DNA from: Gammaproteobacteria bacterium
GTDB taxonomy: Bacteria; Pseudomonadota; Gammaproteobacteria; Eutrophobiales; Eutrophobiaceae
Reading direction: 5' to 3'
Length of the DNA: 64,000 nt
NCBI GenBank assembly: GCA_028281365.1
Contig: JANQJZ010000015.1
Coordinates: forward strand, 13,879-77,878
Shown: one piece after another, positions 5,000-54,388 of the stretch
Layout of the letters: the number at the start of each line of letters is the position of its first letter
How positions within the stretch are numbered: the first letter of the stretch is position 1
Notes under the pieces: generated by a model
The model's database searches: none
Told to the model about the DNA's origin: nothing
What the model saw: the letters and a program-made list of their open reading frames with translations, nothing else
Program-made: the position numbers and the translations under genes

Positions 5000-5452
5000 T
5001 TAAGGAGCATCAGTTACAGAAATATCAATACTTCTGGAAACATAGGTTATACCACCTAGTGTTCCTTTCGATGTAGTAATGCCTAAATTATAAACGCAAT
5101 ATGTTGATGATGCTTCTGTTATTGTATTTTCAGTACAACTTGTTACATTGCCTTGAAACCCGTTAGCACCACCCAAAGTAAAATTAATTGTTGCACCATT
5201 TATGGCAGGCGCGGTTGTACAACAATCTGTTCCACATGTACAAGCAGGCCTGTTTAATGCCTGATATATCGCCCATTCAGCAGTACTTCTGGTAGCAAAC
5301 CATGCTTGCATGGAACCAAGAGATTGAGTTGTATTCAAAGAACCAATATTCGATAGTGTTGCCATATAGATACCTAAAAGGGAAAATAACACAATCAAAA
5401 CAACTGCAATGATAGCGCTAAAACCTTTTTGCTTTTCCTGTCTGATATTCAT
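5000..5452 (-). CDS. MSHA minor pseudopilin, MshP/PilX-like.
   Basis: 150 aa. N-terminal hydrophobic pilin-like segment QKGFSAIIAVVLIVLFSLLGIYMATL lacks Glu5. It is the last gene of the pilin operon. Confidence 0.55.
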   Translation of the reverse strand: MNIRQEKQKGFSAIIAVVLIVLFSLLGIYMATLSNIGSLNTTQSLGSMQAWFATRSTAEWAIYQALNRPACTCGTDCCTTAPAINGATINFTLGGANGFQGNVTSCTENTITEASSTYCVYNLGITTSKGTLGGITYVSRSIDISVTDAP

Positions 5453-21106: not shown

Positions 21107-24100
21107 TTACCAGGGTTCCCGTATGTATATTAATTGTCTTGGCCCTTGGAACAAACCAAATTCGGCCCGACCAGACGGATCGACATTAAATGGCCCATCC
21201 CCGGCTTCATCAGCCCAGTCATATTGCAACCAATCCATATTGAGCCCACCTGTACTCAAATCCAGGGTGGTATCAATGAAACCGGTACAACCTGCAGCAG
21301 GGGCTGCAACATCAAAAGATAAGCCCCCGGAACCACTGGCGAATGTGGCATTTGCCATAGTTGCAGTTGCCACACCTGTACCGCCGCATGTTCCTGCATT
21401 AGTGATATCAACATTACCGTCGGTTTCACCTGTTTCAACTGCACTTGTTAAGCTTAAATCCGTTGTGGCAATAGCAGTACATCCATCATCGGTATTTGTA
21501 ATAAAGCTCTGGGTAGTACCGTCATAATATTGTGCTTCAAGCGGTACAGGTAAAGATAACAATTCAGAACCTACCACATTACCAATGAATAACCGACCGA
21601 GACGCAAATTAGCACCCGAAATGTTACTGATAACAAAATTATCAGCGGCAATAGCCTCGCAAGTACCATTATTGTTTCCGTCATAACAGATACCATCATT
21701 ATCTGTTAGATCAAATTCATCACTATTAGTACCGGAAAACGCTGTAAAACTAACATCAGCATCTGCTGCAAACGGTGCCACCAGTTCACTAACACGATCG
21801 TAGCTAAACACATCACCACTGCTTCCACTAGTTAGTGTGTAAAAAGCAACTCCGTCTAAATCATTATGATCCGACAATGTCTCGTTTACCGTATCTACGC
21901 CGGTAAAATTTGTTTGTGAGGCAGTTAATCCAGAGTTGTCACTATAACTATGTTGTATGTTTACAGATTCAGGATCTGCACCAAGAGTTGTAAGTTTCCA
22001 AAATGCCATACCATAATTCAGTGTTGTCTCTGGTGTTCCCGCACCATTCATCGCCGTCACCGTTAAAACCGGCGCGGTATTATAGTAGAAAGGCTGGTCC
22101 ATATAGGTAAAGGTACTATTACAACTATCCGCAAAATCAGGCGTATTCGCACTAACAGCAAAATGATCCGGTGTAAACCGGCCGATATTGATACTGGTAG
22201 ATGGACTTATGGTATCGCCTAAATAAGATATTGCTGTTGCCGGCGCCGTTGCATCACCGCTGGCAGTAATGGTGAATACGCCAACTTCATCAATACTCTG
22301 AGTGTGAGTATCTGTTCCTTTGTCTGCATTGAGTATATCGATGGAAGTGACTAATAGGTCACCGTCTACACCACCCGATGGCTCTATAACATTTGAATTT
22401 AACTCTATTCCAGTTATTTCAAAATTAGGTGTAGTGACATTTCCGGAACCGCCTGCAGTACAATAATCACTATCTGCATCACCATCGACACTATCCCAGG
22501 TAACCCCATTGATTGTTAAATTAAATGCCTCACTTGCTTTTCTAAATACAGTGCATGTTGCACTTGCTGGCATACAATCAGCATTGGCATCAGTCGTTTC
22601 AACACAGATGCCCGCAGGTTTTACAACAAAGGCATTACTCATGCCGATGTTATAAACCATGTTTGGAGGATCAATATCAAAACGAGCATGCAAGGTAACC
22701 TGGCCAGCATCATCATAAACAAAACGTAACGGTGTTTTTGAATCGGCATCAAAATCAAACTGGACACCGGTATAACTGGTCACTGAACCATTAGGATTAC
22801 CAGCAATAGCTTGCAAGGTAGCGCTATCGTCTTCAACCTCTATCTGGACCGTCTCACAGGCTGTCGGGTTATTACATTCGGAAGCCAATTCAACAGTGAC
22901 GTTATTTTCACTTTCAAAAACACCCTGGCATTCAACTGCACTGACTGTTTCAATCGCCTGCAAATAAAGGTCCTGAAAACCCGTGCCTGCCGTGTTGGAC
23001 TGTTTACCAGATAACTTGGCTGAAATAGATACAGGGACAGGTGGGGTAGAATTATCGACGACTCGAAAAACCGCATCACGAAATTCGATCTCAGGATCTT
23101 CTGCATCGCTGTTATCACCGTTACCTTTTTCCATATCACCATTGTCATCAGATAAGTCAATATCAATGGTTAATGCCGTTAATTGTCTCAATTCCAATGT
23201 AACACTGCTTTCTTCTGTGCCACTGGGCCAGGTATAAGTCACCGGATTACCAGCTCCCCCGAATGTACCATTTCCAGTGACTACACTTTCCCAGGTACCA
23301 GTATTGGTTGTTGTACCATCAATATAAGCATTAATGGTTAATACAGTACCGCCTAAAACATTAACAACATTATCACTGCTATCATGGGCTGTAATAGTGA
23401 CCTGTGATGCTTCACAAGTTAGACCGATTGCACCATTAGGATATGTAATCTCATAGTGATCAACCTGATCTAGTACGATTTCTAAATCTAACGTTAATGC
23501 ATCAACATCTTCCCCGCCGGATGTAAAATTGGCTTCAGAGAAGTAGATAGAGGCAGTATCTGTATTACGGTTATACAATACAACATCACCGTCCAGAACT
23601 GCTGTCCCACGGATCGTGTTATTGTTTGCAATACTGAATAAAATCAGATTCGAATCATCATTTAATAGATGCACACCATCAATATCTTCATCACCACCTG
23701 CATTAGGAATTAGATTCGTCGTTGCACTTTCATCCAGAAACATAGTGGCACAGGTATTTGTCGGATCCCATTCAACCAGATCATCGTCTATGAAATTTAA
23801 ATTTCCACCACCACACATTGGCAATGTTGCATTTCCTGTAGTTGATAAAATAATATTCCCGTTTCCGCGTACATAAACCGCATCAACGGTTTCATCAGCG
23901 GTAAAATTAGTCTCGGCAAATAATGTTCCAACAAAATTATATACACCTGCAGAACCTGAAGGCGTCACTTCAACAATATCGCCATTTGCAAAAGTATTTC
24001 CACCAATAGTTGCGCCACCGGCGGTGGTCACTGCAAGATTACCGTTAGTATATTGATGTATACCATTCAGTGTTTCATTCGCGGCAAAAGTTGCGTCGTC

Positions 24101-26260
24101 AAAAAATAGGGTCCCTGAATCATTTAGAATATCGTATTCAACTGCTTCATCCTGATCGATGGCCTGTCCACCAAGCGTTGAATTATTATTAGTGCTGACA
24201 ATGATATTTCTTAGATCGGCGTACCAAATCTCAACCTGATGACAATATGTATCATCGACCAGGACTGTTGCAGCCTGGGTTAACGAAATATTGCCATAAG
24301 TAACACTGCTTACCCGGCCCGTACCACATCCAGAAGGTTCCTCTATCGTTATACCAACGATAAGTTTTGTATTGATCGTATCATTAGTAACAAAAGTATG
24401 TGTCCAACTTAATGTAGATGTTGTGGCTGCACCGGTATCATTACTGGCCGCTGCATCAAAGGCAATCGTTGAACCCGCTGCCGGAGCAACGGCAATAATG
24501 GCATGTGCAATCCGATTTGAGTCAGGTGGATTATCAAAATCCTGTGTCATTGAATCCAAACCGGCCGTTGCAACCGGTTTGGTACTCATTGCACCGGTCG
24601 AACTGTCTGCTGAAGTATCCCAACGTTCTGTCTGCCCCGCACCTGGTGTAAATGAACCGGGCTGACCATCGCCAACCGTATCAATCAACCAGGCGTTGTT
24701 CGTTAGGGTCGTGATATTGGTTGTAATATCATTATCAGCATCGGTTGTTTCGGTACCAGTTGCCGTAGCCTCGGGGGTACCAAGAGATGTACCGGTAAGG
24801 CTGATTGATCCGCCATTAATATTATCAACGTTACCGGTTAGCGTAACTGTAACCGTATTAGTAATTACAATCGGCGTTAAAGCCACGAGTTGAGCAACAC
24901 CGGTATCCGCATTACCTGCAACGGTTGCCGTTTTGTTACCTGTTGCACCAGTAGCAGCTTGTAAAACATCATTCATTTCCAGTGATATACCTGCCGCATT
25001 CGGTGTTGTTAATGAGGCAACATCGACCTGTTCTGTCATGCCAGCAGGTGGCGTCCACGTTTCTGATGAACTAAAACTATGCGTACTGACTATCATGGTA
25101 TTTGCTACGGTTGTATTAATACTATTTGCAGTATGACTGGTGCCAGATACTGTCGTGTTACCGCCCGATGCATCGATAGGACTAGTCGTATCGACCCCCC
25201 TATACGTAATAATACCACCCGCAGTTCCTGTAATTGCAACACCAGAAAAAGCCCAAACATATGCAGTCGGTTCTGTAGAAGTCGCTACCCGATAATAAGT
25301 CGCTTGCGAATTACTATTTCCAGCTGCCTGATTAACACGGTTTATTAATGTCCATCCGGCTGGAGCTGTTATTGTTGTTGTCGAAGGTCTTACAGAAATT
25401 GCTGCAAGCATGACATCATTTGTTGTTGTCCCAGTAGGAACATTGATAGATATACCATCAAGCGAGTTATCAGGTGTCAGTGCAAACAACACACCGATAC
25501 TCTCGTCAGTACCAAGGTTTTGTGGCCAGGTAAATGCCCCCTTTGCGCCTGCTGTTGCTTCCTGCCGGTAATTAAGAGAAATCGCACTGTCTCTATTAGC
25601 AGCCGAAGCGGAATCAAACGATTCAGAAAAACCATCTGCCTCGGTAACCACGGCATTATCATTGATAAACGTAACGGCAATAGACATTGCAGTGGCAGTA
25701 GTCGTTGTCTCGGTACCTGTCGTGACGTTTGCTGTATTTTGCGTGCTTGAATTTCCTGCAAGTATGGGATTGGTCTCAAACGGTGCAGTTGTATTGACAC
25801 CATCGAACCGGGAAATCCGACCTCGTAATGATTGACAATTAGCAGGGCCGCCAGTTGATGTTGACGTTATCGTATTTGGATCACCCCCGGTAGCAATACG
25901 CCAAAAAATATAACCGCCAAGATCCTGGTTACCATCAACACCATGGTACCCGGAATAATATAGGTTCCAGCCTGGCATTGTTACATTGGTCGTGTTTTCC
26001 CTGATTACGGCTACAGCGATTAATAGATCACCAACACTACCTGCAGGTATTGTTGGCGAAATATTTCCACAATTATTTCTCGAAACAAATGTCCCGGTGC
26101 CAACATGATTAATGATACCAACCGTAGTTCCGCTTTGTTCTGATGCAACCGTTGAGATTGCGGCATATGCCGGTAATGCATGGATTGTAAAGACACTAAA
26201 TAAAAAACAAACACAATATTTGCGAATAACAAATATAAAATTTTTAGTGCCTGTTTTCAT
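21107..26260 (-). CDS. Giant secreted Thr/Gly/Asn/Asp-rich repeat protein (1717 aa). Candidate MshQ-like pilus-associated adhesin.
   Basis: Uninterrupted 5.15-kb ORF. Sec signal MKTGTKNFIFVIRKYCVCFLFSVFTIHALPAYA. Low-complexity T/G/S/N/D-rich beta-type sequence. Three internal repeats (FDDATFAANETLNG / LFAETNFTADETVDA / IYFSEANFTSGGEDVDA). Co-operonic with the ECF sigma/anti-sigma pair, and mshQ is missing from its canonical place. Confidence 0.6.
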   Translation of the reverse strand: MKTGTKNFIFVIRKYCVCFLFSVFTIHALPAYAAISTVASEQSGTTVGIINHVGTGTFVSRNNCGNISPTIPAGSVGDLLIAVAVIRENTTNVTMPGWNLYYSGYHGVDGNQDLGGYIFWRIATGGDPNTITSTSTGGPANCQSLRGRISRFDGVNTTAPFETNPILAGNSSTQNTANVTTGTETTTTATAMSIAVTFINDNAVVTEADGFSESFDSASAANRDSAISLNYRQEATAGAKGAFTWPQNLGTDESIGVLFALTPDNSLDGISINVPTGTTTNDVMLAAISVRPSTTTITAPAGWTLINRVNQAAGNSNSQATYYRVATSTEPTAYVWAFSGVAITGTAGGIITYRGVDTTSPIDASGGNTTVSGTSHTANSINTTVANTMIVSTHSFSSSETWTPPAGMTEQVDVASLTTPNAAGISLEMNDVLQAATGATGNKTATVAGNADTGVAQLVALTPIVITNTVTVTLTGNVDNINGGSISLTGTSLGTPEATATGTETTDADNDITTNITTLTNNAWLIDTVGDGQPGSFTPGAGQTERWDTSADSSTGAMSTKPVATAGLDSMTQDFDNPPDSNRIAHAIIAVAPAAGSTIAFDAAASNDTGAATTSTLSWTHTFVTNDTINTKLIVGITIEEPSGCGTGRVSSVTYGNISLTQAATVLVDDTYCHQVEIWYADLRNIIVSTNNNSTLGGQAIDQDEAVEYDILNDSGTLFFDDATFAANETLNGIHQYTNGNLAVTTAGGATIGGNTFANGDIVEVTPSGSAGVYNFVGTLFAETNFTADETVDAVYVRGNGNIILSTTGNATLPMCGGGNLNFIDDDLVEWDPTNTCATMFLDESATTNLIPNAGGDEDIDGVHLLNDDSNLILFSIANNNTIRGTAVLDGDVVLYNRNTDTASIYFSEANFTSGGEDVDALTLDLEIVLDQVDHYEITYPNGAIGLTCEASQVTITAHDSSDNVVNVLGGTVLTINAYIDGTTTNTGTWESVVTGNGTFGGAGNPVTYTWPSGTEESSVTLELRQLTALTIDIDLSDDNGDMEKGNGDNSDAEDPEIEFRDAVFRVVDNSTPPVPVSISAKLSGKQSNTAGTGFQDLYLQAIETVSAVECQGVFESENNVTVELASECNNPTACETVQIEVEDDSATLQAIAGNPNGSVTSYTGVQFDFDADSKTPLRFVYDDAGQVTLHARFDIDPPNMVYNIGMSNAFVVKPAGICVETTDANADCMPASATCTVFRKASEAFNLTINGVTWDSVDGDADSDYCTAGGSGNVTTPNFEITGIELNSNVIEPSGGVDGDLLVTSIDILNADKGTDTHTQSIDEVGVFTITASGDATAPATAISYLGDTISPSTSINIGRFTPDHFAVSANTPDFADSCNSTFTYMDQPFYYNTAPVLTVTAMNGAGTPETTLNYGMAFWKLTTLGADPESVNIQHSYSDNSGLTASQTNFTGVDTVNETLSDHNDLDGVAFYTLTSGSSGDVFSYDRVSELVAPFAADADVSFTAFSGTNSDEFDLTDNDGICYDGNNNGTCEAIAADNFVISNISGANLRLGRLFIGNVVGSELLSLPVPLEAQYYDGTTQSFITNTDDGCTAIATTDLSLTSAVETGETDGNVDITNAGTCGGTGVATATMANATFASGSGGLSFDVAAPAAGCTGFIDTTLDLSTGGLNMDWLQYDWADEAGDGPFNVDPSGRAEFGLFQGPRQLIYIREPW

Positions 26261-26264
26261 AATA

Positions 26265-26672
26265 TTAATATGATTCTCTCTGATAGATTATTGGTGAATC
26301 ATTATCTCGATAACCGGTATTGTTGCTCTCACCAGCCTCCGTTTTTTGATCATCATCAACCACTCCGGGTCCGGATTCATTCATCTTACCATTGCCTTGC
26401 AGTTGTTTTTCTATAATTTCCGGTTGCTGTTTACTCACTATCATATCTCCGATCCACCATGCTGCACTTGCAAAACCACCCGCTAATAATAAAACGATCC
26501 ACCACGGTATTTTGTTCAGGCTTTTTTGAGTCCTGGTTCTCTTTGCATGAAGTAGTAACCTGCTTTCAATAGTCGACAGTCTTGATTGGTCGGCGTCAGG
26601 CATGGATTCATAAACCTGTACAATCAGGTGTTCAACCTCTGACTCTGAAACAGGTGGAAATTTATGTGTCAC
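26265..26672 (-). CDS. Putative single-pass anti-sigma factor.
   Basis: 135 aa. Cytoplasmic N-terminus, one TM (WWIVLLLAGGFASAAWWI), short periplasmic tail. Overlaps the ECF sigma gene by 11 nt and ends 4 nt before the giant gene. Confidence 0.5.
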   Translation of the reverse strand: MTHKFPPVSESEVEHLIVQVYESMPDADQSRLSTIESRLLLHAKRTRTQKSLNKIPWWIVLLLAGGFASAAWWIGDMIVSKQQPEIIEKQLQGNGKMNESGPGVVDDDQKTEAGESNNTGYRDNDSPIIYQRESY

Positions 26673-27195
26673 TTGAGTCCTCTTGCCATCGCTGCTTCAG
26701 CTTATTAATGATGGCTGCACATTGTCTACGTACTGTGCCTTCCGGTAATTCCAGCATTGTTGCGATCTCTTTATGTGTTAACCCAACTCTATAACGCATG
26801 AACAACAGATTTTGTTCATCCTGGGGAAGTTTTTTTATTAATCTTTCAAGATAAAGTTGTTGATCCTTATATTCAGGATCCTGGCCCGCTTGTTGTTCTA
26901 TATCTATATCAATATTATCGACAGGTGACGCTTTCTCTCTACGATAAGCATCAATATGTAAATTGATCGCTATTCGATATAACAACGCTTTGGGAGATCG
27001 TAAATCTTTACAAACAACCTGAATAAATTTAAGAAAAGCATCCGCAAGCAGGTCATACGCGGCATCCGGATTACACCCCCTGTTTTTTAAAAATTGCCAC
27101 AGACGAGGTGACTCGGAACGATAAAAGCGGCTGAATGCATTTGTATCTGCATCTTTACAATATTGTTCGAGTAATTGTTTCGAATTGTCCTGCAT
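26662..27195 (-). CDS. ECF-type RNA polymerase sigma-70 family factor.
   Basis: 177 aa. Region 2 (AAYDLLADAFLKFIQ...LYRIAINLHIDAYRR) and region 4 HTH (LTHKEIATMLELPEGTVRRQ). Confidence 0.8.
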   Translation of the reverse strand: MQDNSKQLLEQYCKDADTNAFSRFYRSESPRLWQFLKNRGCNPDAAYDLLADAFLKFIQVVCKDLRSPKALLYRIAINLHIDAYRREKASPVDNIDIDIEQQAGQDPEYKDQQLYLERLIKKLPQDEQNLLFMRYRVGLTHKEIATMLELPEGTVRRQCAAIINKLKQRWQEDSSDT

Positions 27196-46203: not shown

Positions 46204-47028
46204 TCAGATCCTGTTAAATAATTTATCGCTATCCATTTCACGAATGTCCATTTTGTCTCTTAGCTTATCGCCTAATAAATTAATGCATAATACTAAAGTC
46301 AGGATAGCAAAACCGGGAGCCAAAACCATATGTGGCGCTACTAACATATAGTTAGTTCCATCACGAATCATACTGCCCCAGGATGCAACAGGTGGTTGCA
46401 CACCCAAACCAAGAAATGACAAGCTAGCTTCGGCAATTACAACCCCGGCAAATGAAAATGTTGCTTCAACAATTAACGGGGCCAATATTAAGGGCAGGAT
46501 ATGCTGAAAAATAACAGTTATTCCTGAACTGCCTAATGCTATTGCAGCAGTAATATGGTCTCGATCTTTTATTGACAAGGTTTGCACTCGCGCCAGGCGA
46601 GCAAACCCTACCCAACTGACTATCGATAATGCGATTACAGCATTGAAAAGTCCGGGCCCCAACAACCCGGCTAATGCGATAGCTAATAAAATACCGGGGA
46701 AAGCAATAAAAAGATCAATAATAATGATTAAACACCTATCCCATATCCCTCCTAACCAGGCCCCCATTACGCCTAACAAGGTGCCGACAACAAATGAGAT
46801 ACTGACAACAATAACTGCAACGCTTAATGATGTTCGTGCGCCCATAATAAGACGGGCACCGATAGAACGACCAAGATCATCATGCCCCAACCAATTCTCG
46901 AAATTTGGCATAACTAATATCTTTTCCAAAATGATTAAGTCCGGGTAGATTGGAAGTATTGGACCAAGTAATGCCAATATTAGCCATATAAGTAATATAA
47001 ATACCGGTATAGAAATAAAACTTTTCAT
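46204..47028 (-). CDS. ABC transporter permease, DppC/NikC-like.
   Basis: 274 aa, 6 TM. Inner-membrane component signature IAEASLSFLGLGVQPP. Confidence 0.8.
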   Translation of the reverse strand: MKSFISIPVFILLIWLILALLGPILPIYPDLIILEKILVMPNFENWLGHDDLGRSIGARLIMGARTSLSVAVIVVSISFVVGTLLGVMGAWLGGIWDRCLIIIIDLFIAFPGILLAIALAGLLGPGLFNAVIALSIVSWVGFARLARVQTLSIKDRDHITAAIALGSSGITVIFQHILPLILAPLIVEATFSFAGVVIAEASLSFLGLGVQPPVASWGSMIRDGTNYMLVAPHMVLAPGFAILTLVLCINLLGDKLRDKMDIREMDSDKLFNRI

Positions 47029-47951
47029 TACTCAAGTCTGACTCTTGGATCCAGTACTGAATAAGTAATATCAGTAATTAAATTAACGACAACATAAACA
47101 AAACTGATTAACAGTACACAGGCTTGTACAACCGGGTAGTCACGTTTTTGAATCGATTCGATCAATAACTGTCCAATTCCTGGCCAGGAAAATATCGTTT
47201 CGGTAATCACGGCCCCTGCCAGCAATGCACCAAGTTGCATACCAAGAATCGTAATAACTGGTAAAGCGGCATTACGTAATGCATGTAAAATTAAAACATG
47301 AAATTCAGATAAACCACGTGCCCTGGCAGCACGGATATAATCTTCTTCCAGTACTTCCAACATAGAAGCCCGTACCATTCGGGAAAGTATCGCTGCCAAG
47401 GCTGTACCCAATGTAATCGCAGGCAAAACTAATGATGCTAAACCATCTTTTCCACTAACCGGAAACCAGCCTAAACTTAAACTAAATATAATGATTAACA
47501 ATGGCCCCATAACAAAATTAGGGATCGACACACCTAGCATGGCAGTAACCATAGCCAATCGATCCCAAATCGAGTTTTTATAAAGTGCTGCTAATATTCC
47601 TAGTGGTAAGGCAATAATGATAGCGATAATAAGACTGGCAACACTCAACACGACTGTCGCTGGAACATGATCTATTAACAACTGGCTGACTGACTGCCTG
47701 GAGTGCAGTGATTGACCAAAATCCAATTGAATTATTCCTGCCAGATATTGCCACCATTGTTGTAGCAGCGGTAAATCGAGTCCCAATGCATGATGTAATG
47801 CATCACGATCTGCAGGTCGTGCTGTTTCGCCTAACATGACTTCTACCGGATCGCCCGGTACGATATGTATTAAAAGAAATACAATAGTCGTAATGCCAAA
47901 TAGAACTAAAATGGCACTGAGTAAACGTTTGATTAAGTATTCCAAATACAC
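47028..47951 (-). CDS. ABC transporter permease, DppB/NikB-like.
   Basis: 307 aa. BPD-transporter signature LEEDYIRAARARGLSEFHVLILHALRNA. Its stop abuts the next permease. Confidence 0.8.
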   Translation of the reverse strand: MYLEYLIKRLLSAILVLFGITTIVFLLIHIVPGDPVEVMLGETARPADRDALHHALGLDLPLLQQWWQYLAGIIQLDFGQSLHSRQSVSQLLIDHVPATVVLSVASLIIAIIIALPLGILAALYKNSIWDRLAMVTAMLGVSIPNFVMGPLLIIIFSLSLGWFPVSGKDGLASLVLPAITLGTALAAILSRMVRASMLEVLEEDYIRAARARGLSEFHVLILHALRNAALPVITILGMQLGALLAGAVITETIFSWPGIGQLLIESIQKRDYPVVQACVLLISFVYVVVNLITDITYSVLDPRVRLE

Positions 47952-48044
47952 AATTTTTAAAAATCCTGGTTCATATCAATCCCCAATTAGGGCTACAATT
48001 ACCATAATAACTCAAGAAGAGTTTATAAGATTTGGGTTAGAATT

Positions 48045-48533
48045 ATGTACAAATTTGATAATAATAATGAAGAAGATACGGAATCTGATAAATCGTTAGC
48101 TATGTCAATAAATGAAACCAGTCAGGATGTACTTAGCATCGTCGTACGCTTATGTGGCTTGACCTTGTTATTTATAGGTATGTGGATAGCAATACAGGTA
48201 TTCCAGGAAGCCATTTCATTATATCGTGATCCGACCAATATTGAGCGTATTGCGAAAGCTATCGAAGAAGGCTCCAATATAGATAAAAGCATCGCACCAA
48301 TCCGGGATAGTATTTTAGGAGAAGATGAAGAACAGACAGAAAACAAATCTGAATCAAACCCTGAAGGTTTTAGAATTTCCTACTTCATTGCCTGGGTAGT
48401 TGATTTACTACTACTCTTACTACTCGCACGCATCGCCATTATGGCAGTTAAAACCGGTGGCGAACTTGCTTTATATGATGCTCAGGTTAAACGACTAGCG
48501 AGACAAATTGTAAATGCAAGAAAAAAAGAATAA
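48045..48533 (+). CDS. Hypothetical membrane protein with 2 TM and an acidic linker.
   Basis: 162 aa. Two clear TM helices separated by a charged, Glu-rich loop. No recognisable family. Confidence 0.4.
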   Translation: MYKFDNNNEEDTESDKSLAMSINETSQDVLSIVVRLCGLTLLFIGMWIAIQVFQEAISLYRDPTNIERIAKAIEEGSNIDKSIAPIRDSILGEDEEQTENKSESNPEGFRISYFIAWVVDLLLLLLLARIAIMAVKTGGELALYDAQVKRLARQIVNARKKE

Positions 48534-48597
48534 TTCAAAGTTCAACAAACAAGCCAAAGCGGATAACCTTAATTTCATAAACTACAAAGAGTAGACG

Positions 48598-49221
48598 ATG
48601 AAACTAATAATTTTTGGGGCTACAGGTACAATTGGGTCTCAGGTTGTAGAGAAATCTTTAGCACAAGGACATCAGGTAACTGCATTCGCACGTAACCTAT
48701 CAACATTAAATATGGAACACCCAAATCTCATGCTAACAGCTGGAGATGTCTTAAATAAGGATTTAGTAACCAATACTATTAAGGATCATGATGCCGTAAT
48801 TATTACTCTTGGAGCAGGAATAAAGGGAAATGTCCGTTCTGCTGGAACAAAGAATATTATTGAAGGAATGAAGCAGCATGGGATACGACGAGTAGTTTGC
48901 CTCTCAACACTTGGTGCGGGAGATAGCCACGATACACTTAATTTCTTCTGGAAGTATATAATGTTTGGACTATTGCTTCGCCAAGCTTTGGCAGACCACG
49001 AAGCACAAGAGGAAGTAATTAAAAATAGTAACCTCGATTGGATCATCGTAAGACCTGCAGCATTTACTGATGGGCCTGCAACCGGGACTTATAAGCATGG
49101 AGAACTAGATTCCGGGAAAAATCTGAAATTAAAAGTTTCCCGTAATGACATTGCAGATTTTATTATTAAATGTCTTAACGATAATACTTATTTACATAAA
49201 ACACCCGGATTATCCTACTAA
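48598..49221 (+). CDS. NAD(P)H-binding oxidoreductase, NmrA/atypical SDR-like.
   Basis: 207 aa. N-terminal Rossmann MKLIIFGATGTIGSQVV. Confidence 0.7.
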   Translation: MKLIIFGATGTIGSQVVEKSLAQGHQVTAFARNLSTLNMEHPNLMLTAGDVLNKDLVTNTIKDHDAVIITLGAGIKGNVRSAGTKNIIEGMKQHGIRRVVCLSTLGAGDSHDTLNFFWKYIMFGLLLRQALADHEAQEEVIKNSNLDWIIVRPAAFTDGPATGTYKHGELDSGKNLKLKVSRNDIADFIIKCLNDNTYLHKTPGLSY

Positions 49222-49269
49222 TAACTAATTGATGTCTGCTTCCGGACGAAAACAGATATTTTAAATATT

Positions 49270-49914
49270 TTATCTATCCGTTGTACTTGCTGGTCGGTCT
49301 GTAATTCTATCCGTTGTCCTGTCTCTTTTTTGTTGCATAAATCGACGTCTTTCTTCTTTAGACATATTTCTTAGTCGTTCTCTTAAAGCCTTACGTTCTT
49401 CCTCAGGTAAACTCTGCATATATTCACGCATCTTCTTGCGTTTGTTTTTTATCTTCTTACGAAAAGCCTTACGTTCTTCCGGTGACATGCTTTGAAACTT
49501 TTCTCTAAGTTCCCTGCGTTTTTCTTCAGGTAAATTCTTAAACCAGGACTGCCTGTTCCTGATTCTTTGCTGCTGTTCCGGTGATAATTCCTGAAACCGT
49601 TGAAAACGATCCCTTATCTTCTGTTTCTGATCTGAATCCATGGATTGCCAGCGCTGCATGCGTTGTTTGGCCTTTTCGCGTTGTTCATCGGACATCTGAT
49701 CCCAACGGCTGGCGCCTCTTTGTAATCGCTGCTGACGTTTGGCAGGCAATTCATCCCAACTGTCCTTAAAATCCTTCAACAGATTTTGTTCATCTGCTGA
49801 TAATGAATCCCAGGCGACACCTTCTTCGGCAAATATATTTGCTGAAAATAGAAAACAAAATAATAAAATTATCGTTAATCTAATTTTCATTTTCAGCCTC
49901 AATAACCGTTTCAA
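49270..49914 (-). CDS. DUF3106-like secreted protein with a repetitive Arg/Gln/Glu-rich helical region.
   Basis: 214 aa. Signal peptide. Repeated motif xQRxxxxRWxxMSxEQRxK (RWDQMSDEQREKAKQRMQRWQSMDSDQKQK...). Confidence 0.55.
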   Translation of the reverse strand: MKRLLRLKMKIRLTIILLFCFLFSANIFAEEGVAWDSLSADEQNLLKDFKDSWDELPAKRQQRLQRGASRWDQMSDEQREKAKQRMQRWQSMDSDQKQKIRDRFQRFQELSPEQQQRIRNRQSWFKNLPEEKRRELREKFQSMSPEERKAFRKKIKNKRKKMREYMQSLPEEERKALRERLRNMSKEERRRFMQQKRDRTTDRITDRPASTTDR

Positions 49915-50122
49915 TTAATGATTCAATTTCATCATCTTCTAAATCAGCAGGATCAATCCATTCACCTTCTTCTGTTTCCCATTCACCCAGAAACTCCAAA
50001 AACTCTATCGTTGGGTTGTTATCCTCTGTTACTTGTTGTTCTGCAAATAAGAGTGAATATGAACAAAATAACAACATGGCACAGGGTTTAACCAAATAAT
50101 GCTTCATCTTCGAGCCATTCAT
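49880..50122 (-). CDS. Small acidic secreted peptide.
   Basis: About 75-80 aa. Signal peptide MKHYLVKPCAMLLFCSYSLLFA then a highly acidic tail (EEGEWIDPADLEDDEIESLIETVIEAENEN). It sits between the anti-sigma and DUF3106 genes. Confidence 0.35.
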   Translation of the reverse strand: MNGSKMKHYLVKPCAMLLFCSYSLLFAEQQVTEDNNPTIEFLEFLGEWETEEGEWIDPADLEDDEIESLIETVIEAENEN

Positions 50123-50507
50123 AAAATTCCAGATCTTCGTATAACTCCAGGTTATCGGAAGATGAGATTAGATCCAGATCATCAATTGGTGTCATCTGTG
50201 AGGTATCAGGTGAATTCAATAGAATCATTATTGCAAAGACCATAACACAAGCTGTTGCTAAAGCGCCTGACATAAGACCAAACCAGTTAAGTGATCTATC
50301 CTCAGTCTGTTCTATAGCTCGACTACGAACTTGTCGAATTCTGGACAAGGTTTGTGCATCCAGACTGTCAACACTATCATCCAGCGTCTGTTTGATATTT
50401 ACAGCTAATTTGTCTTTGTCATGTTTATTCATAATAAAATTATTACCAATGCTCACCCAGTTTCTCTCGTAAGCTGTGTATTGCTCTTGAGTAATGCGTT
50501 TTGACAC
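50088..50507 (-). CDS. Putative single-TM anti-sigma factor. The likely true start is an internal Met near 50432.
   Basis: Cytoplasmic N-domain, TM (LMSGALATACVMVFAIMILL), short periplasmic tail. Immediately downstream of the ECF sigma gene and overlapping it. Confidence 0.5.
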   Translation of the reverse strand: MSKRITQEQYTAYERNWVSIGNNFIMNKHDKDKLAVNIKQTLDDSVDSLDAQTLSRIRQVRSRAIEQTEDRSLNWFGLMSGALATACVMVFAIMILLNSPDTSQMTPIDDLDLISSSDNLELYEDLEFYEWLEDEALFG

Positions 50508-50916
50508 TTCCGCTTGAACATTTCATCGCCCTTGCTGTTTCATCAACACTATACCCTTCCCATATCCTTAATAAAAACGCCTGCTGTTGACGTAACGGTA
50601 ATTCATGTAATGCATGATCCAGTTCATCGATTCGTTTATCTGCCTGCAATAATTGTTCGGGTGTTCTTGCGCTTTCATCTTCAGCCGATTGTACAAGATC
50701 TTCCTGTTCGCCATCTTTACTGCCAAACCAGATACGAAATTTATTTCTAACCTGATTACGTCGATACCAATCATTGATTCGACTTTGCAATATGGTTGTA
50801 AACAATGGCCCCCATTCACTGGGATTACGTTGTGCATATTTCTCTACCAGTTTAAACATGGCATCCTGCAAAATGTCCAATGCCTCATCCCGATTGCCGG
50901 TCGCGATCATCGCCAT
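50443..50916 (-). CDS. ECF-type sigma-70 family factor. The N-terminus is possibly extended by about 20 codons to a non-ATG start.
   Basis: 157 aa from the first ATG. Region 2.2 ALDILQDAMFKLVEKY and region 4 HTH (YSVDETARAMKCSSGSVKTHYSRA). The in-frame upstream sequence TLESRRELDTFLASVEKRAYR encodes region 2.1 but carries no ATG. Confidence 0.75.
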   Translation of the reverse strand: MAMIATGNRDEALDILQDAMFKLVEKYAQRNPSEWGPLFTTILQSRINDWYRRNQVRNKFRIWFGSKDGEQEDLVQSAEDESARTPEQLLQADKRIDELDHALHELPLRQQQAFLLRIWEGYSVDETARAMKCSSGSVKTHYSRAIHSLREKLGEHW

Positions 50917-51069
50917 ACGATAAGCCCGCTTTTCAACACTGGCAAGAAAGGTATCCAGTTCACGCCGAGATTCCAGTGTTTATCCCCTTTTATAAAAACT
51001 CTCAAGAAAATGAAATTCATCTTATAACTAACGTAGCCAGACACTTCCGGCTACGTCATTATCGAATGA

Positions 51070-51738
51070 TTAACGGGTTCGGGCAACGCGTGCACGTCGT
51101 TGATTAACATTTGCACGGTCACGAACATTTTCCCTTCTGTCCCTGACATCTTCCCGACGATCACGAACATCTTCCCGGCGGTCAGCAATATCTTCCCTCC
51201 TGTCTCTCACATCTTCACGTCGATCACGAACATCTTCCCTTCTATCCTGATACCATTCCCTTGTACCCGGCTCGTAATTTGTTCGTGCATCCCGGATATC
51301 TTCTCGACGATCGCGAATATCTTCACGTCGATCAGCCACATCCTCGCGACGATCTCTTATATCTTCGCGTCGATCAGCACGATCCTCCCGACGGTCGCGA
51401 ATATCCTCACGTTCGTCACGATTCAACCGACCATCGCCGTCATCATCAAAACGCTCAATTCGATTCTCGCGTCTAATTTCACGAACAGCTTGTCGTTCAT
51501 CCTGACTCAATCGCCCGTCACCATCTGTATCAGCACGTTCAAATCTTTCTGCTCGAGTCAGACGATCTGTATCTGTTGATTCATCATCTTCGGCGATTAC
51601 TGGTGAGCTAAGTGCAACACCTAATAGCAATATGCTTATTTTTTTTAAATTCTGTACTTGCATTGTTGTTATCCTCCTTACGGATATTCTGATTACAACT
51701 CTACTAACGCATGGGGTATCATTCGGTTGACAAAACAA
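51070..51738 (-). CDS. Secreted EF-hand calcium-binding protein with tandem DRREDxR heptad repeats. Probable start at the Met of MQVQNLKKISILLL near position 51663.
   Basis: Signal peptide. Two canonical EF-hand loops DTDGDGRLSQDE and DDDGDGRLNRDE. More than 14 tandem heptads (DRREDIR/DRREDVA...) encoded by 21-bp DNA repeats. Confidence 0.6.
   Translation of the reverse strand: MFCQPNDTPCVSRVVIRISVRRITTMQVQNLKKISILLLGVALSSPVIAEDDESTDTDRLTRAERFERADTDGDGRLSQDERQAVREIRRENRIERFDDDGDGRLNRDEREDIRDRREDRADRREDIRDRREDVADRREDIRDRREDIRDARTNYEPGTREWYQDRREDVRDRREDVRDRREDIADRREDVRDRREDVRDRRENVRDRANVNQRRARVARTR
51100..51460. repeat. Coding tandem repeat array with 21-bp periodicity inside the EF-hand protein gene.
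   Basis: Visible iterations of units like cgatcacgaacatcttcccg / cgatcagccacatcctcgcga. The plus-strand shadow ORF 51100..51579 translates as an NIFP-type repeat, which is an artefact of the same periodicity. Confidence 0.7.
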
Positions 51739-51867
51739 TTAAAAATGAAAGCCGGACTCAGTGTTGAAGAAACGGTTGAACAAATTAATGAACTTGAGGA
51801 GGAAATCCAAAAACAGGCCCCAACTGTTAAATGGTGTTTCATGGAACCGGATACTAAAATTTAATAA

Positions 51868-52353
51868 TTGATGAAGATCGTTTTATACATTGTAATAGGG
51901 TTGATAGTTGGCAGCATAGGTGGCTTTGGTGCTGGCATTATTGCCTTCCCCTATTTATTTCCTCCTCCACCTGTTAATGAACAGGTTGCTGATAAGGAAA
52001 CCAAACAAGTTGTTGCGACCGGGCAATTTATTCATGCAGATCCCTCTGACCCGGTACACTTTGGTGAAGGTGGTGTAACAATTTATAAAGACTTATTACA
52101 TCTCGAAGCTAACTTTAAGGTCGGTCCCGGCCCCAAGTATCATGTCTACCTTGTTCCTGATGGAAATATTACTCCGGATACCGATGTACAAAACACCATG
52201 TATGTCGATCTTGGCAGGTTAAAGGCATTTGAAGGTAGTCAGAATTATCCAATCCCCGAAGGGGTTAATTTAAGCAAATACCAATCCACTGTTGTCTGGT
52301 GTGAACAATTCAATGTTTTGATCTCGCCAGCAACGCTAGATTTCAAAAATTAA
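51868..52353 (+). CDS. DM13-domain-like protein with an N-terminal membrane anchor.
   Basis: 161 aa. N-terminal TM. The C-terminal region (FGEGGVTIYKD...HLEANFKVGPGPKYHVYLVPDG) resembles a DM13 beta-domain. Confidence 0.45.
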   Translation: MMKIVLYIVIGLIVGSIGGFGAGIIAFPYLFPPPPVNEQVADKETKQVVATGQFIHADPSDPVHFGEGGVTIYKDLLHLEANFKVGPGPKYHVYLVPDGNITPDTDVQNTMYVDLGRLKAFEGSQNYPIPEGVNLSKYQSTVVWCEQFNVLISPATLDFKN

Positions 52354-53333
52354 TTTATTAACACTGCAGCGCCCTGAACCTGACCCGAACGTAATTGTTC
52401 CAGAGCCTTATTCGCATCACTTAAAGGAAACGTCTGTGTTTCAGTCTTGACGGATATTTTATCCATCAGTTTTAAAAACTCTTCACCATCCCTGCGTGTT
52501 AAATTGGCTACCGATTTAACCGTTCGTTCCCCCCAAAGTATATCGTAGGGAAAACCTGGTATATCACTCATATGAATTCCGGCACAAACAACAATACCGC
52601 CTTTCTTGACTGCTTTTAGTGCTAATGGAACCAGTTCTCCTACAGGGGCATATAAAATAGCAGCATCTAATGGAACAGGTGCAGGCTTATTTGAATCACC
52701 TGCCCATTTTGCACCGAGTTGTTTAGCAAAGTTTTGGGCTTCTGCATCTCTAGGACTGGTAAACGCGTAGACTTCTTTTCCCTGTTGAATCGCTACCTGC
52801 GTAATAATATGTGCCGCTGCACCGAAACCATAGATACCAAGCCGTTGACTATCATTCGTCATTTTGTACGAGCGATAACCAATTAAACCGGCACAAAGCA
52901 AAGGTGCAACTTCAACATCATTCATCGCATTATTTAGAGGAAAAACAAAATGTTGATTTGCGATCGTGTATTCGGCAAATCCACCATCAATGTGATAACC
53001 GGTAAAGGATGCACTATTACACAGGTTTTCATTGTTACTTAAACAATACTCACATTTACCACAGGTAAAACCTAACCAGGGCACACCAACACGGTCACCC
53101 GTTTTTAAATCGTTAACTTCGTCTCCACAAGAAACCACATGACCAACTATTTCGTGGCCAGGGATCAAAGGCAGTTTGGGTTGCTTGAGATCACCGTCAC
53201 AGACATGTAGATCGGTTCGACAAACCGCACATGCAGAGATTTTAATTAAAACATCCTGTGTTCCAGGTTCGGGGATAGGACATTCATCAAGGACAAGAGG
53301 TTTGCCCTGTTCATGTAAGCGCATTGCTTTCAT
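52350..53333 (-). CDS. Zinc-dependent alcohol dehydrogenase, MDR family, AdhP-like.
   Basis: 327 aa. Catalytic Zn motif CAVCRTDLHV...GHEIVGHV. Structural Zn Cys cluster CGKCEYC. Rossmann GFGAAAH. Confidence 0.85.
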   Translation of the reverse strand: MKAMRLHEQGKPLVLDECPIPEPGTQDVLIKISACAVCRTDLHVCDGDLKQPKLPLIPGHEIVGHVVSCGDEVNDLKTGDRVGVPWLGFTCGKCEYCLSNNENLCNSASFTGYHIDGGFAEYTIANQHFVFPLNNAMNDVEVAPLLCAGLIGYRSYKMTNDSQRLGIYGFGAAAHIITQVAIQQGKEVYAFTSPRDAEAQNFAKQLGAKWAGDSNKPAPVPLDAAILYAPVGELVPLALKAVKKGGIVVCAGIHMSDIPGFPYDILWGERTVKSVANLTRRDGEEFLKLMDKISVKTETQTFPLSDANKALEQLRSGQVQGAAVLIN

Positions 53334-53456
53334 TAGAGCTTAATAATATTTCGTTATACTGTTAAGATGATATATATATCTTTATCAAGATCAAAGGGCT
53401 TTCAATTTCTGGTACAAATTAACTGACTGCCCTAATTAGGTGACATTTTAAAAGGT

Positions 53457-53804
53457 ATGAATATGGCTTCAGAAAATAACTCAAATGATATGCGGGACAA
53501 GGGTCGAGTCCAGGCCATGATCGATATTTCGACCTATATTGATAACAAAAAACTCGATACCTATATGCGTAATTTGTCCTGTAGCGGGATTATGATTGTT
53601 GATGACCCTGATACAGACTATGAACCTGGTCGGGAATGTAAGATAGCGATACCTCTGGATGAATCAAGAAGCATAGAACTGGATGCAAAAATTGTATGGC
53701 GAAAAGATGGTCTGGTTGGACTCAATTTTCCCAACATAGATGAATCAGCATCATCAAATTTAAATCAATTAATATTGAGACAAATCAATAATCCATCCAG
53801 CTAG
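53457..53804 (+). CDS. Stand-alone PilZ-domain c-di-GMP receptor.
   Basis: 115 aa. PilZ motifs RDKGR (RxxxR) and NLSCSG (D/NxSxxG) at the expected spacing. Confidence 0.7.
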   Translation: MNMASENNSNDMRDKGRVQAMIDISTYIDNKKLDTYMRNLSCSGIMIVDDPDTDYEPGRECKIAIPLDESRSIELDAKIVWRKDGLVGLNFPNIDESASSNLNQLILRQINNPSS

Positions 53805-53908
53805 TAACATTATTTAATATCTTTGTTCATCATATGGTTTGCCGCTTGTATAAATGATGACATCCAACACGCTCAAACGCTGTTTCCAGTCGGTAGACTT
53901 TTGCTTCT

Positions 53909-54388
53909 CTATTCATCCTCAATTATGACCTGCATCCCTGTTTCAACTATATTAAATAATTCAATCATGTCTTCGTTTTGCATACGTATACAGCCACGCG
54001 ATCCGGGCTTACCCATTTCTACATCATCCGGGGCACCATGGATATAGATGTAACGATCATGACTATCGACACTACCACCTTTATTCTTCCCTTCTTCAGT
54101 ACCGCTTAACCAGAGTATGCGTGTTAGTATCCAGTCCCTTTCCGGGTGCAATTCTCGCAATGCCGGCTCATAGATTTCACCAGTAGGTATCCGGCCGACA
54201 AAAACAGAATTAATTTCACAGCCTTCACCAATTTTCTCGGAAATTATATGCGCACCACGTGGTGTACATTCACTGTCCATGGCTTCACCTACACCATTTT
54301 TCGCTGTTGATATGGAATATTTTTTTAATTGTTTATTATCTTCAAACAATATCAATGTTTGATCATTAATTGAAACTTCTATGTGCAT
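53909..54388 (-). CDS. L,D-transpeptidase, YkuD domain.
   Basis: 159 aa. Catalytic motif HGAP...GSRGCIRM. Confidence 0.8.
   Translation of the reverse strand: MHIEVSINDQTLILFEDNKQLKKYSISTAKNGVGEAMDSECTPRGAHIISEKIGEGCEINSVFVGRIPTGEIYEPALRELHPERDWILTRILWLSGTEEGKNKGGSVDSHDRYIYIHGAPDDVEMGKPGSRGCIRMQNEDMIELFNIVETGMQVIIEDE

Follow-up and report, generated by a model that had tools for sequence, protein, structure and literature searches.

A predicted CUG start codon in a widespread ECF sigma factor module with secreted EF-hand and charged-repeat proteins

Introduction

We analysed a stretch of 64,000 nucleotides (nt) from Gammaproteobacteria bacterium (GenBank assembly GCA_028281365.1, contig JANQJZ010000015.1, positions 13,879 to 77,878 of the forward strand), here called the window; coordinates count from its first letter. 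On its minus strand, positions 51732..49270 hold a compact module of five genes with a convergent neighbour on one side and a divergent neighbour on the other. They encode, in this order, a secreted EF-hand/charged-repeat protein, a sigma factor of the extracytoplasmic function (ECF) type, a DUF3619 protein, an acidic protein of 80 amino acids (aa) and a DUF3106 protein. A preliminary description of this DNA had listed the same five genes in the same order, and all of them were found. It had also pointed out that the sigma gene has no ATG where region 2.1 begins. This is correct, the first in-frame ATG being codon 21. The locus thus raises the question where translation of the sigma factor starts and, furthermore, whether the five genes belong to one regulatory system.

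The region is read here, with a probability of about 0.7, as one ECF sigma signalling operon with a sigma factor started at a CUG codon, an EF-hand gene in first position behind the promoter and a predicted control from the periplasm.

Identity and translation start of the sigma factor

The sigma gene (50443..50976, minus strand) encodes 177 aa when read from the CTG at 50976..50974. It was delimited by its match to the NCBIfam model NF006550, codon statistics, selection and an AlphaFold2 model. The protein belongs to NF006550/PRK09047 (224.4 bits against a curated cutoff of 173), residues 2-176 aligning to positions 9-190 of the 194 in the profile. It also matches Pfam Sigma70_r2 (25.1 bits), Sigma70_r4_2 (55.7 bits) and Sigma70_ECF, as well as TIGR02937 (82.8 bits). 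Only the sigma2 and sigma4 domains are present, which is the composition of an ECF (group IV) factor, and the AlphaFold2 model consists of two helical domains with a disordered linker at residues 86-101.

The start of translation is best explained by the CUG at 50976..50974, and not by the ATG 20 codons downstream. In the sigma frame the DNA reads AAA AGG GGA TAA ACA CTG GAA TCT CGG CGT GAA CTG GAT ... CGT ATG GCG ATG. A Shine-Dalgarno sequence (SD), AAAGGGGA, is located at 50983..50990 (minus strand), 6 nt upstream of the CTG. Between the two lies an in-frame TAA (50980..50982, minus strand), and no ATG, GTG or TTG occurs in this frame between the TAA and the ATG of codon 21 (50916). In all 10 sequences of the clade to which the window belongs (76-82% identical to the window) a TAA or TAG is found at this place. 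Because of this stop codon between SD and CUG an N-terminally longer sigma factor is excluded in the clade. A TGA or TAG stands at the equivalent place in the related loci L167, L057 (Geobacter) and L017 (Nitrospiraceae), too.

The peptide (L)ESRRELDTFLASVEKRAYR, encoded by the 20 codons that follow the TAA, matches the NCBIfam profile from residue 2 as well as Pfam Sigma70_r2, and initiation at the CUG would give a protein beginning with (M/L)ESRRELDTFLASVEK. In the AlphaFold2 model, built from an alignment of 45 sequences (mean predicted local distance difference test score, pLDDT, 79), residues 2-26 form one helix with a pLDDT of 82-89. In the sigma frame, pairwise comparison of codons 2-20 within the clade gave 130 synonymous as against 176 non-synonymous differences; in the +1 frame there were 12 and 325, respectively.

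Public gene calls give the sigma factor of the window 157 aa from ATG 50916. Likewise, among the 120 best homolog clusters over 50 carry calls of 156-160 aa beginning with MA(E/Q/M)IATGN. If this annotated model were right, the conserved codons upstream would be an untranslated leader; besides the consistent choice of the gene callers, the far higher efficiency of AUG compared to CUG would speak for it. However, selection acts on codons 2-20 at the amino-acid level in the sigma frame. The peptide encoded by them fits the NCBIfam and Pfam profiles and makes up most of helix 1 of the sigma2 domain. A product from ATG 50916 therefore lacks most of this helix, since residues 2-26 form one unit in the model. 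Moreover, ATG 50916 has no good SD, and codon 21 encodes Ile in 65 of 137 loci (see below), so that it is not a conserved start. We regard the annotated start as improbable.

The most extensive evidence for the CUG comes from the comparison of related loci. The 137 non-redundant start regions were obtained from 80 loci of species-representative genomes, 80 loci of metagenomes and seven other loci. The codon aligned to the CTG of the window is CTG in 100 of them, ATG in five, GTG in two and TTG in two; the remaining 28 mostly show a one-codon shift of the alignment, with a canonical start or a CTG adjacent. When position 1 is Leu, the codon is almost invariably CTG (100 of 102), and at the conserved Leu positions 7 and 11 five to six synonymous codons are in use, with CTG accounting for 35% and 34%, respectively. 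The loci with CTG at position 1 span 38-68% GC. Below 45% GC all 13 loci have CTG there, though it makes up only 16% of the Leu codons in the gene bodies.

The codons at -12..-7 are GGG, AGG or GAG followed by AGA, GGA or GAG, which corresponds to an SD at ideal spacing. An SD-like tetramer was found at -15..-5 in each of the 100 CTG loci (85 with GGAG, GAGG or AGGA); among controls, the rate was 18% upstream of random in-frame codons and 22% upstream of internal CTG codons. Furthermore, in 30 loci an in-frame stop codon lies upstream and no ATG, GTG or TTG precedes the CTG. These loci include the clade of the window, a Nitrospiraceae metagenome-assembled genome, Geobacter sp. OR-1, Syntrophales, Zetaproteobacteria and Thiogranum.

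In two sister loci, both syntenic to the window, an ATG is found one codon earlier: L167 reads AAAGGGGA TGA ATG CTG GAA and L165 reads AAAGGAATCCA ATG TTG CAA. Where this earlier codon is the start, it is followed by L, Q, P, R, G, N or A. As the residue varies in these proteins, Leu is not needed at position 1, and CTG is fixed, to judge from the aligned loci, only where it is the sole possible start. The predicted CUG start is kept in about three quarters of the sigma family and in several bacterial phyla; the sigma factors assigned to it come from Gammaproteobacteria, Nitrospirota, Nitrospinota, Zetaproteobacteria and Desulfuromonadales/Syntrophales.

The preliminary description had left two options for the sigma gene, a non-canonical start or an N-terminal truncation. 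For a decaying or truncated gene, in which the TAA arose as a nonsense mutation cutting a longer open reading frame (ORF), it can be said that in some relatives the frame is open farther upstream and ATGs occur there. But the arrangement SD-stop-NNN-CTG is present in all 10 diverged clade sequences, which have no upstream in-frame start, and the whole gene is under purifying selection. In addition, the downstream partner genes are intact, and the arrangement of SD, stop and CTG recurs in Geobacter and Nitrospiraceae. Truncation is thus hardly credible, and the evidence favours the non-canonical start, namely CUG.

Upstream of the sigma gene (51020..50907, minus strand) an ATG is located 44 nt before the CTG in the +1 frame and is invariant in the clade. 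Its ORF comprises 37-38 codons in eight of the 10 clade members, and the copy of the window ends in a TGA that overlaps the ATG at codon 23 of the sigma gene (ATGA). In the clade this ORF has no SD, its ATG lies in the base of a hairpin (see below), and the +1 frame shows no coding-type conservation. The invariance, the constant length and the overlap could suggest that the N-terminal codons of the sigma factor are reached from this ATG by a programmed frameshift, or that the overlapping ORF truly regulates translation of the sigma gene. Yet a -1 shift before the CTG runs into TAA or TAG at once, the sequence after the CTG contains no slippery heptamer, and the 12 synonymous as against 325 non-synonymous differences are not the pattern of a translated +1 frame. 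The frameshift was rejected on the grounds of frame and stop codons, and together with a regulatory role of the ORF this explanation is very improbable.

In L057 (Geobacter sp. OR-1, NZ_BAZF01000010.1) a five-codon in-frame upstream ORF, ATG CCA AGT GGG GAG TGA (MPSGE*), was detected about 20 nt upstream of position 5001. It terminates within the SD at a distance of one codon from the CTG, indicating a possible termination-reinitiation arrangement.

Promoter and organization of transcription

The search for ECF-type promoter motifs upstream of the genes, which the preliminary description had proposed, yielded one exact match to TGTCAACC-N15-CGTT in the 64-kb window and no second copy. Its -35 element lies at 51732..51725 and its -10 element at 51709..51706 (minus strand), 42 nt upstream of the ATG of the first gene. 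Because this sole match precedes the first gene by such a short distance, the EF-hand gene is the promoter-proximal gene of a putative sigma-dependent unit, which agrees with its earlier assignment to the module. A first guess for the promoter, GTAA-N18-CGWTA, had been dropped, as it was not enriched in the window.

The family consensus of this promoter is TGTCAACC-N15-(G)CGTT. Using the strict pattern GT[CA]AACC-N15/16-CGTT, 142 matches were found in 1.0 Mb of loci, compared to about 2 expected; 118 of these are located upstream of the operon on the same strand. A slightly looser pattern occurs within 260 nt of the CTG in 81 loci, mostly 70-190 nt upstream. In 32 loci the promoter is found 290-920 nt upstream, mostly with a gene for a secreted protein in between. 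The two features that accompany ECF sigma genes, an adjacent anti-sigma gene and a promoter with AAC in the -35 and CGT in the -10 element, are thus represented by DUF3619 (72 of 80 genome loci) and by the motif (118 cases). From this we infer that DUF3619 acts as anti-sigma factor and that the sigma factor uses this promoter.

A long conserved hairpin, recognized by folding and alignment, separates the first gene from the sigma gene (51017..51069, minus strand). The 116-nt stretch containing it has a minimum free energy of -31.7 kcal/mol (z -2.7), and 18 base pairs are conserved, two of them with compensatory changes; further covarying forms are present in L165 and L167. The hairpin of the window has no proper U tract. 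GC-rich hairpins were detected at the equivalent position in other lineages, several of them followed by T runs (L040, L033, L067, L032). The structure is probably an attenuator, a partial terminator or a processing site. No known RNA of Rfam was found in the window. To this extent the membership of the EF-hand gene in the module has to be qualified, as the hairpin perhaps partly splits transcription.

Inside the 3' end of the first gene, a candidate promoter of the sigma-70 type, TTGCCC-N17-GATAAT, was found in a consensus scan (51058..51086, minus strand; low confidence). It may give basal transcription. In nine clade sequences GATAAT is invariant and TTGC mostly conserved.

This element and the hairpin are the basis of another explanation, in which the first gene and the sigma block are transcribed separately. 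The hairpin would then end the sigma-dependent transcript, and the sigma block would be read only from the sigma-70-like promoter, that is, without autoregulation. The strength and conservation of the hairpin, the clear terminator-like forms with T runs in L040, L033, L067 and L032 and the conservation of TTGCCC-N17-GATAAT in the clade are in line with it. On the other hand, the window's own hairpin has no proper U tract, and the sigma-70-like element agrees with the consensus at only nine of 12 positions, a quality of match that is no commoner in this region than in shuffled sequence. Moreover, the family promoter directly precedes the sigma gene in the 81 loci that have no first gene, and therefore autoregulation is the family rule. 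Two separate units are unlikely, but have to be reckoned with more seriously than the alternatives concerning the start codon.

Proteins encoded downstream of the sigma gene

The DUF3619 protein (50088..50432, minus strand; 114 aa; Pfam PF12279) is a predicted single-pass membrane protein with its N-terminus inside. It matches the Pfam model with 30 bits at residues 6-107 (gathering cutoff 22.2). Following the transmembrane segment at residues 58-72 the protein ends in an acidic periplasmic tail with a charge of -13, free of K and R and containing the motif LELYEDLEFYEWL. The tail motif LEL(Y/F)E(D/N)LEFY.WL occurs in 93 of 121 loci, and the C-terminal LEFY.WL is present in the protein of the window. 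By position and topology DUF3619 is presumed to be the anti-sigma factor.

The next gene (49880..50122, minus strand) encodes a small secreted acidic protein of 80 aa, or 75 aa from the ATG at 50107, with a signal peptide and the core motif IEFLEFLGEWETEEGEWIDP. Its mature part has a net charge of -21 and contains neither K nor R. An ORF of this kind between DUF3619 and DUF3106 is nearly universal across the loci. The family is characterized by a signal peptide, an acidic tail and the core P(S/D)LE(F/L)LEFLG.(W/F)ET.(D/E)GEWIDP, a motif found in 100 of 121 loci. The protein has no match in Pfam or NCBIfam. A profile of the family retrieved 1126 representative clusters at E<=1e-3, and the relatives examined are labelled 'hypothetical protein' only and carry no Pfam domain.

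The last gene encodes the DUF3106 protein (49270..49890, minus strand; 206 aa from ATG 49890, the ORF reaching TTG 49914; Pfam PF11304), which matches its Pfam model in two stretches with 101.3 bits (gathering cutoff 24.3). Its signal peptide is followed by basic helical repeats W..(L/M)S.E(Q/E)R, with a net charge of +17 and a pI of 10.4. A homolog search gave three matches. The possibility that DUF3106 is a relative of CpxP and Spy was rejected, since there was no match to Pfam LTXXQ at E<=1 and none to CpxP, Spy or ZraP in the PDB at E<=10. The best of the weak matches were apolipoprotein A-I type repeats. Together with the first-gene product, of which 66% are charged residues, the two secreted proteins bear out the earlier remark that the non-regulatory products are extremely charged.

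The first gene and the putative regulon

The first gene (51070..51663, minus strand) starts with an ATG behind the strong SD GGAGG and encodes a secreted protein of 197 aa with a signal peptide. The end of the module at 51738 given in the preliminary description corresponds to an upstream TTG of the same ORF, the start with the strong SD being at 51663. Two EF-hand loops were read from the sequence, DTDGDGRLSQDE at residues 45-56 (51531..51496, minus strand) and DDDGDGRLNRDE at residues 73-84 (51447..51412, minus strand). Both fit the canonical 12-residue loop D-x-[DN]-x-[DNS]-G-x-hydrophobic-x-x-x-E. Behind the loops the protein consists of charged DRREDxxD repeats, with tandem periods of 21, 42 and 63 nt at 51116..51412. 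The earlier name 'EF-hand repeat protein' is thus justified for the two loops but not for the rest.

Equivalent first genes were found in 32 loci. The encoded proteins have two to four EF-hand loops in the clade of the window and its sisters. Most other lineages carry in this position a gene for a secreted protein of 11-residue repeats (LDRRGDRIExR), and other charged repeats occur, too; an EF-hand protein in this place is therefore not the general case. The 11-residue repeats resemble apolipoprotein-type amphipathic repeats, yet they score below the cutoffs. L017, L069, L031, L040, L066 and others carry such secreted proteins (R-L-D-R-[RK]-G-D-R-I-[ED]-x) between promoter and sigma gene; no family could be assigned to them, and the likeness is of the apolipoprotein or LEA (late embryogenesis abundant) type. 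Matches to 'EF-hand' obtained by tblastn in distant loci were rejected, because they align to charged repeats and not to EF-hand loops.

In the groups of L116, L120, L131 and L143 the family promoter is present a second time and drives a convergent gene for a secreted multi-EF-hand protein. In these and related loci the gene is located on the minus strand at about +2500 to +2950 from the sigma start. The proteins of L116 and L120 reached 45-53 bits for EF-hand_7 and up to 57 bits for EF-hand_1 in Pfam scans. Since extra promoter copies precede these convergent genes, the tie of the sigma factor to secreted EF-hand and charged proteins exists in two different gene arrangements. Further genes behind extra promoter copies encode other charged repeat proteins, a His/Arg-rich protein and DUF4382 lipoproteins. 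In L010 (+3658), L027 (+2742) and L028 (+2838) the family promoter lies ahead of lipoproteins of 600-640 aa, of which the one of L010, the only one of the three that was scanned, matches DUF4382 with 28.6 bits. These lipoproteins are candidates for further regulon members.

Conservation of the module and its neighbourhood

The order of sigma, DUF3619, small protein and DUF3106 genes recurs together with the promoter motif in about 130 non-redundant loci of several phyla. As determined by tblastn, DUF3619 is found downstream of the sigma gene in 72 and DUF3106 in 76 of 80 genome loci; with the small-protein motif in 100 of 121 loci, the co-conservation of the module genes is well documented.

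Between the end of the sigma gene at 50443 and the DUF3619 gene lie 10 nt. The small gene shares 35 nt with DUF3619 (20 nt counted from the second ATG of the small gene) and 11 nt with DUF3106 (35 nt if DUF3106 begins at the TTG). The sigma-to-DUF3106 block had been called tightly overlapping, which applies to its last three genes but not to sigma and DUF3619. Similarly, the gap of 153 bp described between the first gene and the sigma gene is obtained if the latter is measured from ATG 50916; to the CTG it is 93 nt.

A gene for an NAD(P)H-binding protein (48598..49221, plus strand) is convergent to the DUF3106 end of the module, and a DM13 gene (51868..52353, plus strand) is divergent from the end with the first gene. 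In the 48-nt gap to the former, a hairpin was found by folding at 49235..49256 (strand unassigned; T-rich tail on the plus strand only). It is possibly a shared terminator of the convergent genes, although our confidence in this is low. The stretch 47028..54388 of the window is syntenic with L001, L165 and L167, in which a peptide ATP-binding cassette transporter, YkuD and DM13 or a cation efflux gene are followed by the module. In view of this synteny the module is a stable chromosomal feature in this gammaproteobacterial group.

A paralogue of the sigma factor was not detected in the window by tblastn. The other ECF sigma gene of the window (26662..27195, minus strand) is unrelated; it encodes 177 aa from an ordinary ATG, with Sigma70_r2 aligned from residue 24, and is located directly upstream of an ORF of 1717 aa (21107..26260).

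A model of regulation

The features described are consistent with the following scheme. DUF3619 would hold the sigma factor at the membrane, while its acidic tail and the small acidic protein would be alternative partners of the basic DUF3106 protein. The sigma factor would be freed by a periplasmic change that most probably concerns Ca2+, ionic conditions or envelope charge. The system would thereby work as an electrostatic partner switch responding to Ca2+, ionic strength or envelope charge, in the manner of CnrYXH or sigmaE-RseA-RseB but unrelated to them. The freed sigma factor would transcribe from TGTCAACC-N15-CGTT, and the hairpin would allow strong expression of the first gene while reducing the transcription that continues into the sigma gene. 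As a weak start, the CUG would hold sigma synthesis well below that of the anti-sigma factor, damping positive feedback. Together, hairpin and CUG would keep the sigma factor low relative to cargo and anti-sigma factor.

On a wider scale, we lean slightly towards the view that the whole ECF sigma family has kept the CUG with its strong SD for a very long time as a translational throttle, possibly sensitive to initiation factor 3 (IF3). The sigma factor would then control a periplasmic system of EF-hand and oppositely charged proteins with the task of sensing or buffering Ca2+ or ionic conditions, and a second, shorter isoform of it would arise in one subclade.

Several observations weigh against the operon with a CUG-started sigma factor and periplasmic control as outlined above. 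CUG is decoded by the initiator tRNA and rarely annotated as a start; since its initiation efficiency in E. coli reporters is only about 0.02-3% of that of AUG, the yield of sigma factor would be very low. In 13 loci a GTG four codons upstream (-4) is a possible start, and the sigma genes of one subclade show a conserved, protein-like extension at the N-terminus (..SDTPxVLGYDN..) that begins at an ATG located 28-36 codons upstream. Termination at the hairpin could also be complete, in which case the sigma gene would be transcribed from the sigma-70-like promoter. With respect to the proteins, the EF-hand scores of the window protein are borderline (26.8 bits for Pfam EF-hand_5 with a cutoff of 25.9, the other EF-hand models remaining below theirs), the DUF3619 tail and the core of the small protein show only a weak likeness (hhalign P 0.023, probability 2%), and for DUF3106 no relationship to a sensor or chaperone of solved structure could be detected.

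Members of the subclade with the LGYD motif are L156, L097, L098, L103, L114, L123 and others, in which GGGAGA-N6-CTG is still found inside the ORF. The CTG may be internal there, or the source of a second isoform. Since both the upstream ATG and GGGAGA-N6-CTG are kept, a long and a short sigma isoform are suggested for this subclade. In L095 (3001-3534) a TGA lies between the LGYD motif and the CTG.

A literature search on DUF3106 and DUF3619, PRK09047, the promoter string and CUG starts in ECF sigma factors gave nothing relevant, and the main text of the 2021 ECF classification does not contain DUF3619, DUF3106 or the promoter motif (PMC7826278). NF006550, DUF3619 and DUF3106 are known as named but uncharacterised families. 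New are, as deduced from the sequence comparisons, the family-wide CUG start together with its misannotation, the promoter motif, the small-protein family and the link to an EF-hand/charged-repeat regulon. Conserved CUG starts are hardly documented in bacteria, and a family with about 75% CUG and clean internal controls offers a natural test bed for the manner and the reasons of the maintenance of weak starts. The annotation error is a systematic one, public calls of the sigma factor being either 20 residues short, with most of the sigma2 helix 1 lost, or extended upstream. Furthermore, a widespread ECF module gains a parts list comprising the promoter motif, a presumed anti-sigma factor, a small-protein family of more than 1000 representative clusters and the recurrent tie to secreted EF-hand and charged-repeat proteins. 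With this list, the roles of DUF3619 and DUF3106 become accessible to direct tests.

Comparison with known systems

The module resembles sigmaE-RseA-RseB of E. coli (rpoE operon), as well as further autoregulated operons of ECF sigma and anti-sigma genes, in its two-domain ECF sigma factor, the single-pass N-in membrane protein encoded next to it and the periplasmic accessory protein in the operon. As in sigmaE-type operons, AAC is part of the -35 and CGT part of the -10 element of the promoter. A sequence relation to RseA or RseB was not found for DUF3619 and DUF3106, which are joined by an additional small acidic secreted protein. Further differences are the cargo gene and the hairpin before the sigma gene, and the CUG start.

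CnrH-CnrY-CnrX of Cupriavidus metallidurans comes close in another respect, namely in a very short single-pass anti-sigma factor (presumed in the case of DUF3619) of about 100 aa with a short cytoplasmic sigma-binding segment. By analogy to CnrX, a separate periplasmic partner would sense a cation-type signal. In contrast to CnrYXH, gene order and protein families differ, and no metal-binding site was identified in DUF3106. CnrY-like anti-sigma factors are mentioned in the 2021 ECF classification (PMC7826278). According to the same source, SigR of S. coelicolor and SigH of M. smegmatis are produced as two isoforms from alternative starts (PMC7826278). The LGYD subclade is similar in keeping an upstream ATG and an internal SD with CTG, from which putative long and short isoforms could arise. 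The clade of the window, unlike SigR and SigH, has the upstream stop codon and only the short form.

The basic, helical, periplasmic DUF3106 protein with its repeated (L/M)S.E(Q/E)R also has some likeness to CpxP, Spy and ZraP (LTXXQ), and it might bind an acidic sensor segment electrostatically. The binding of CpxP to CpxA has been proposed to be electrostatic. DUF3106 differs from CpxP and Spy in the missing LTXXQ and PDB matches reported above.

For the start codon, the closest parallel is the AUU start of infC, the gene of IF3, in which a non-canonical start codon serves as a regulatory device. The sigma gene shares with infC a conserved weak start with a good SD in a regulator gene, and its expression would be sensitive to start-codon discrimination by IF3. 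The sigma gene differs in that no autoregulatory logic is known here, the codon is CUG instead of AUU, and the genes in which it is conserved encode a family of sigma factors, not a translation factor.

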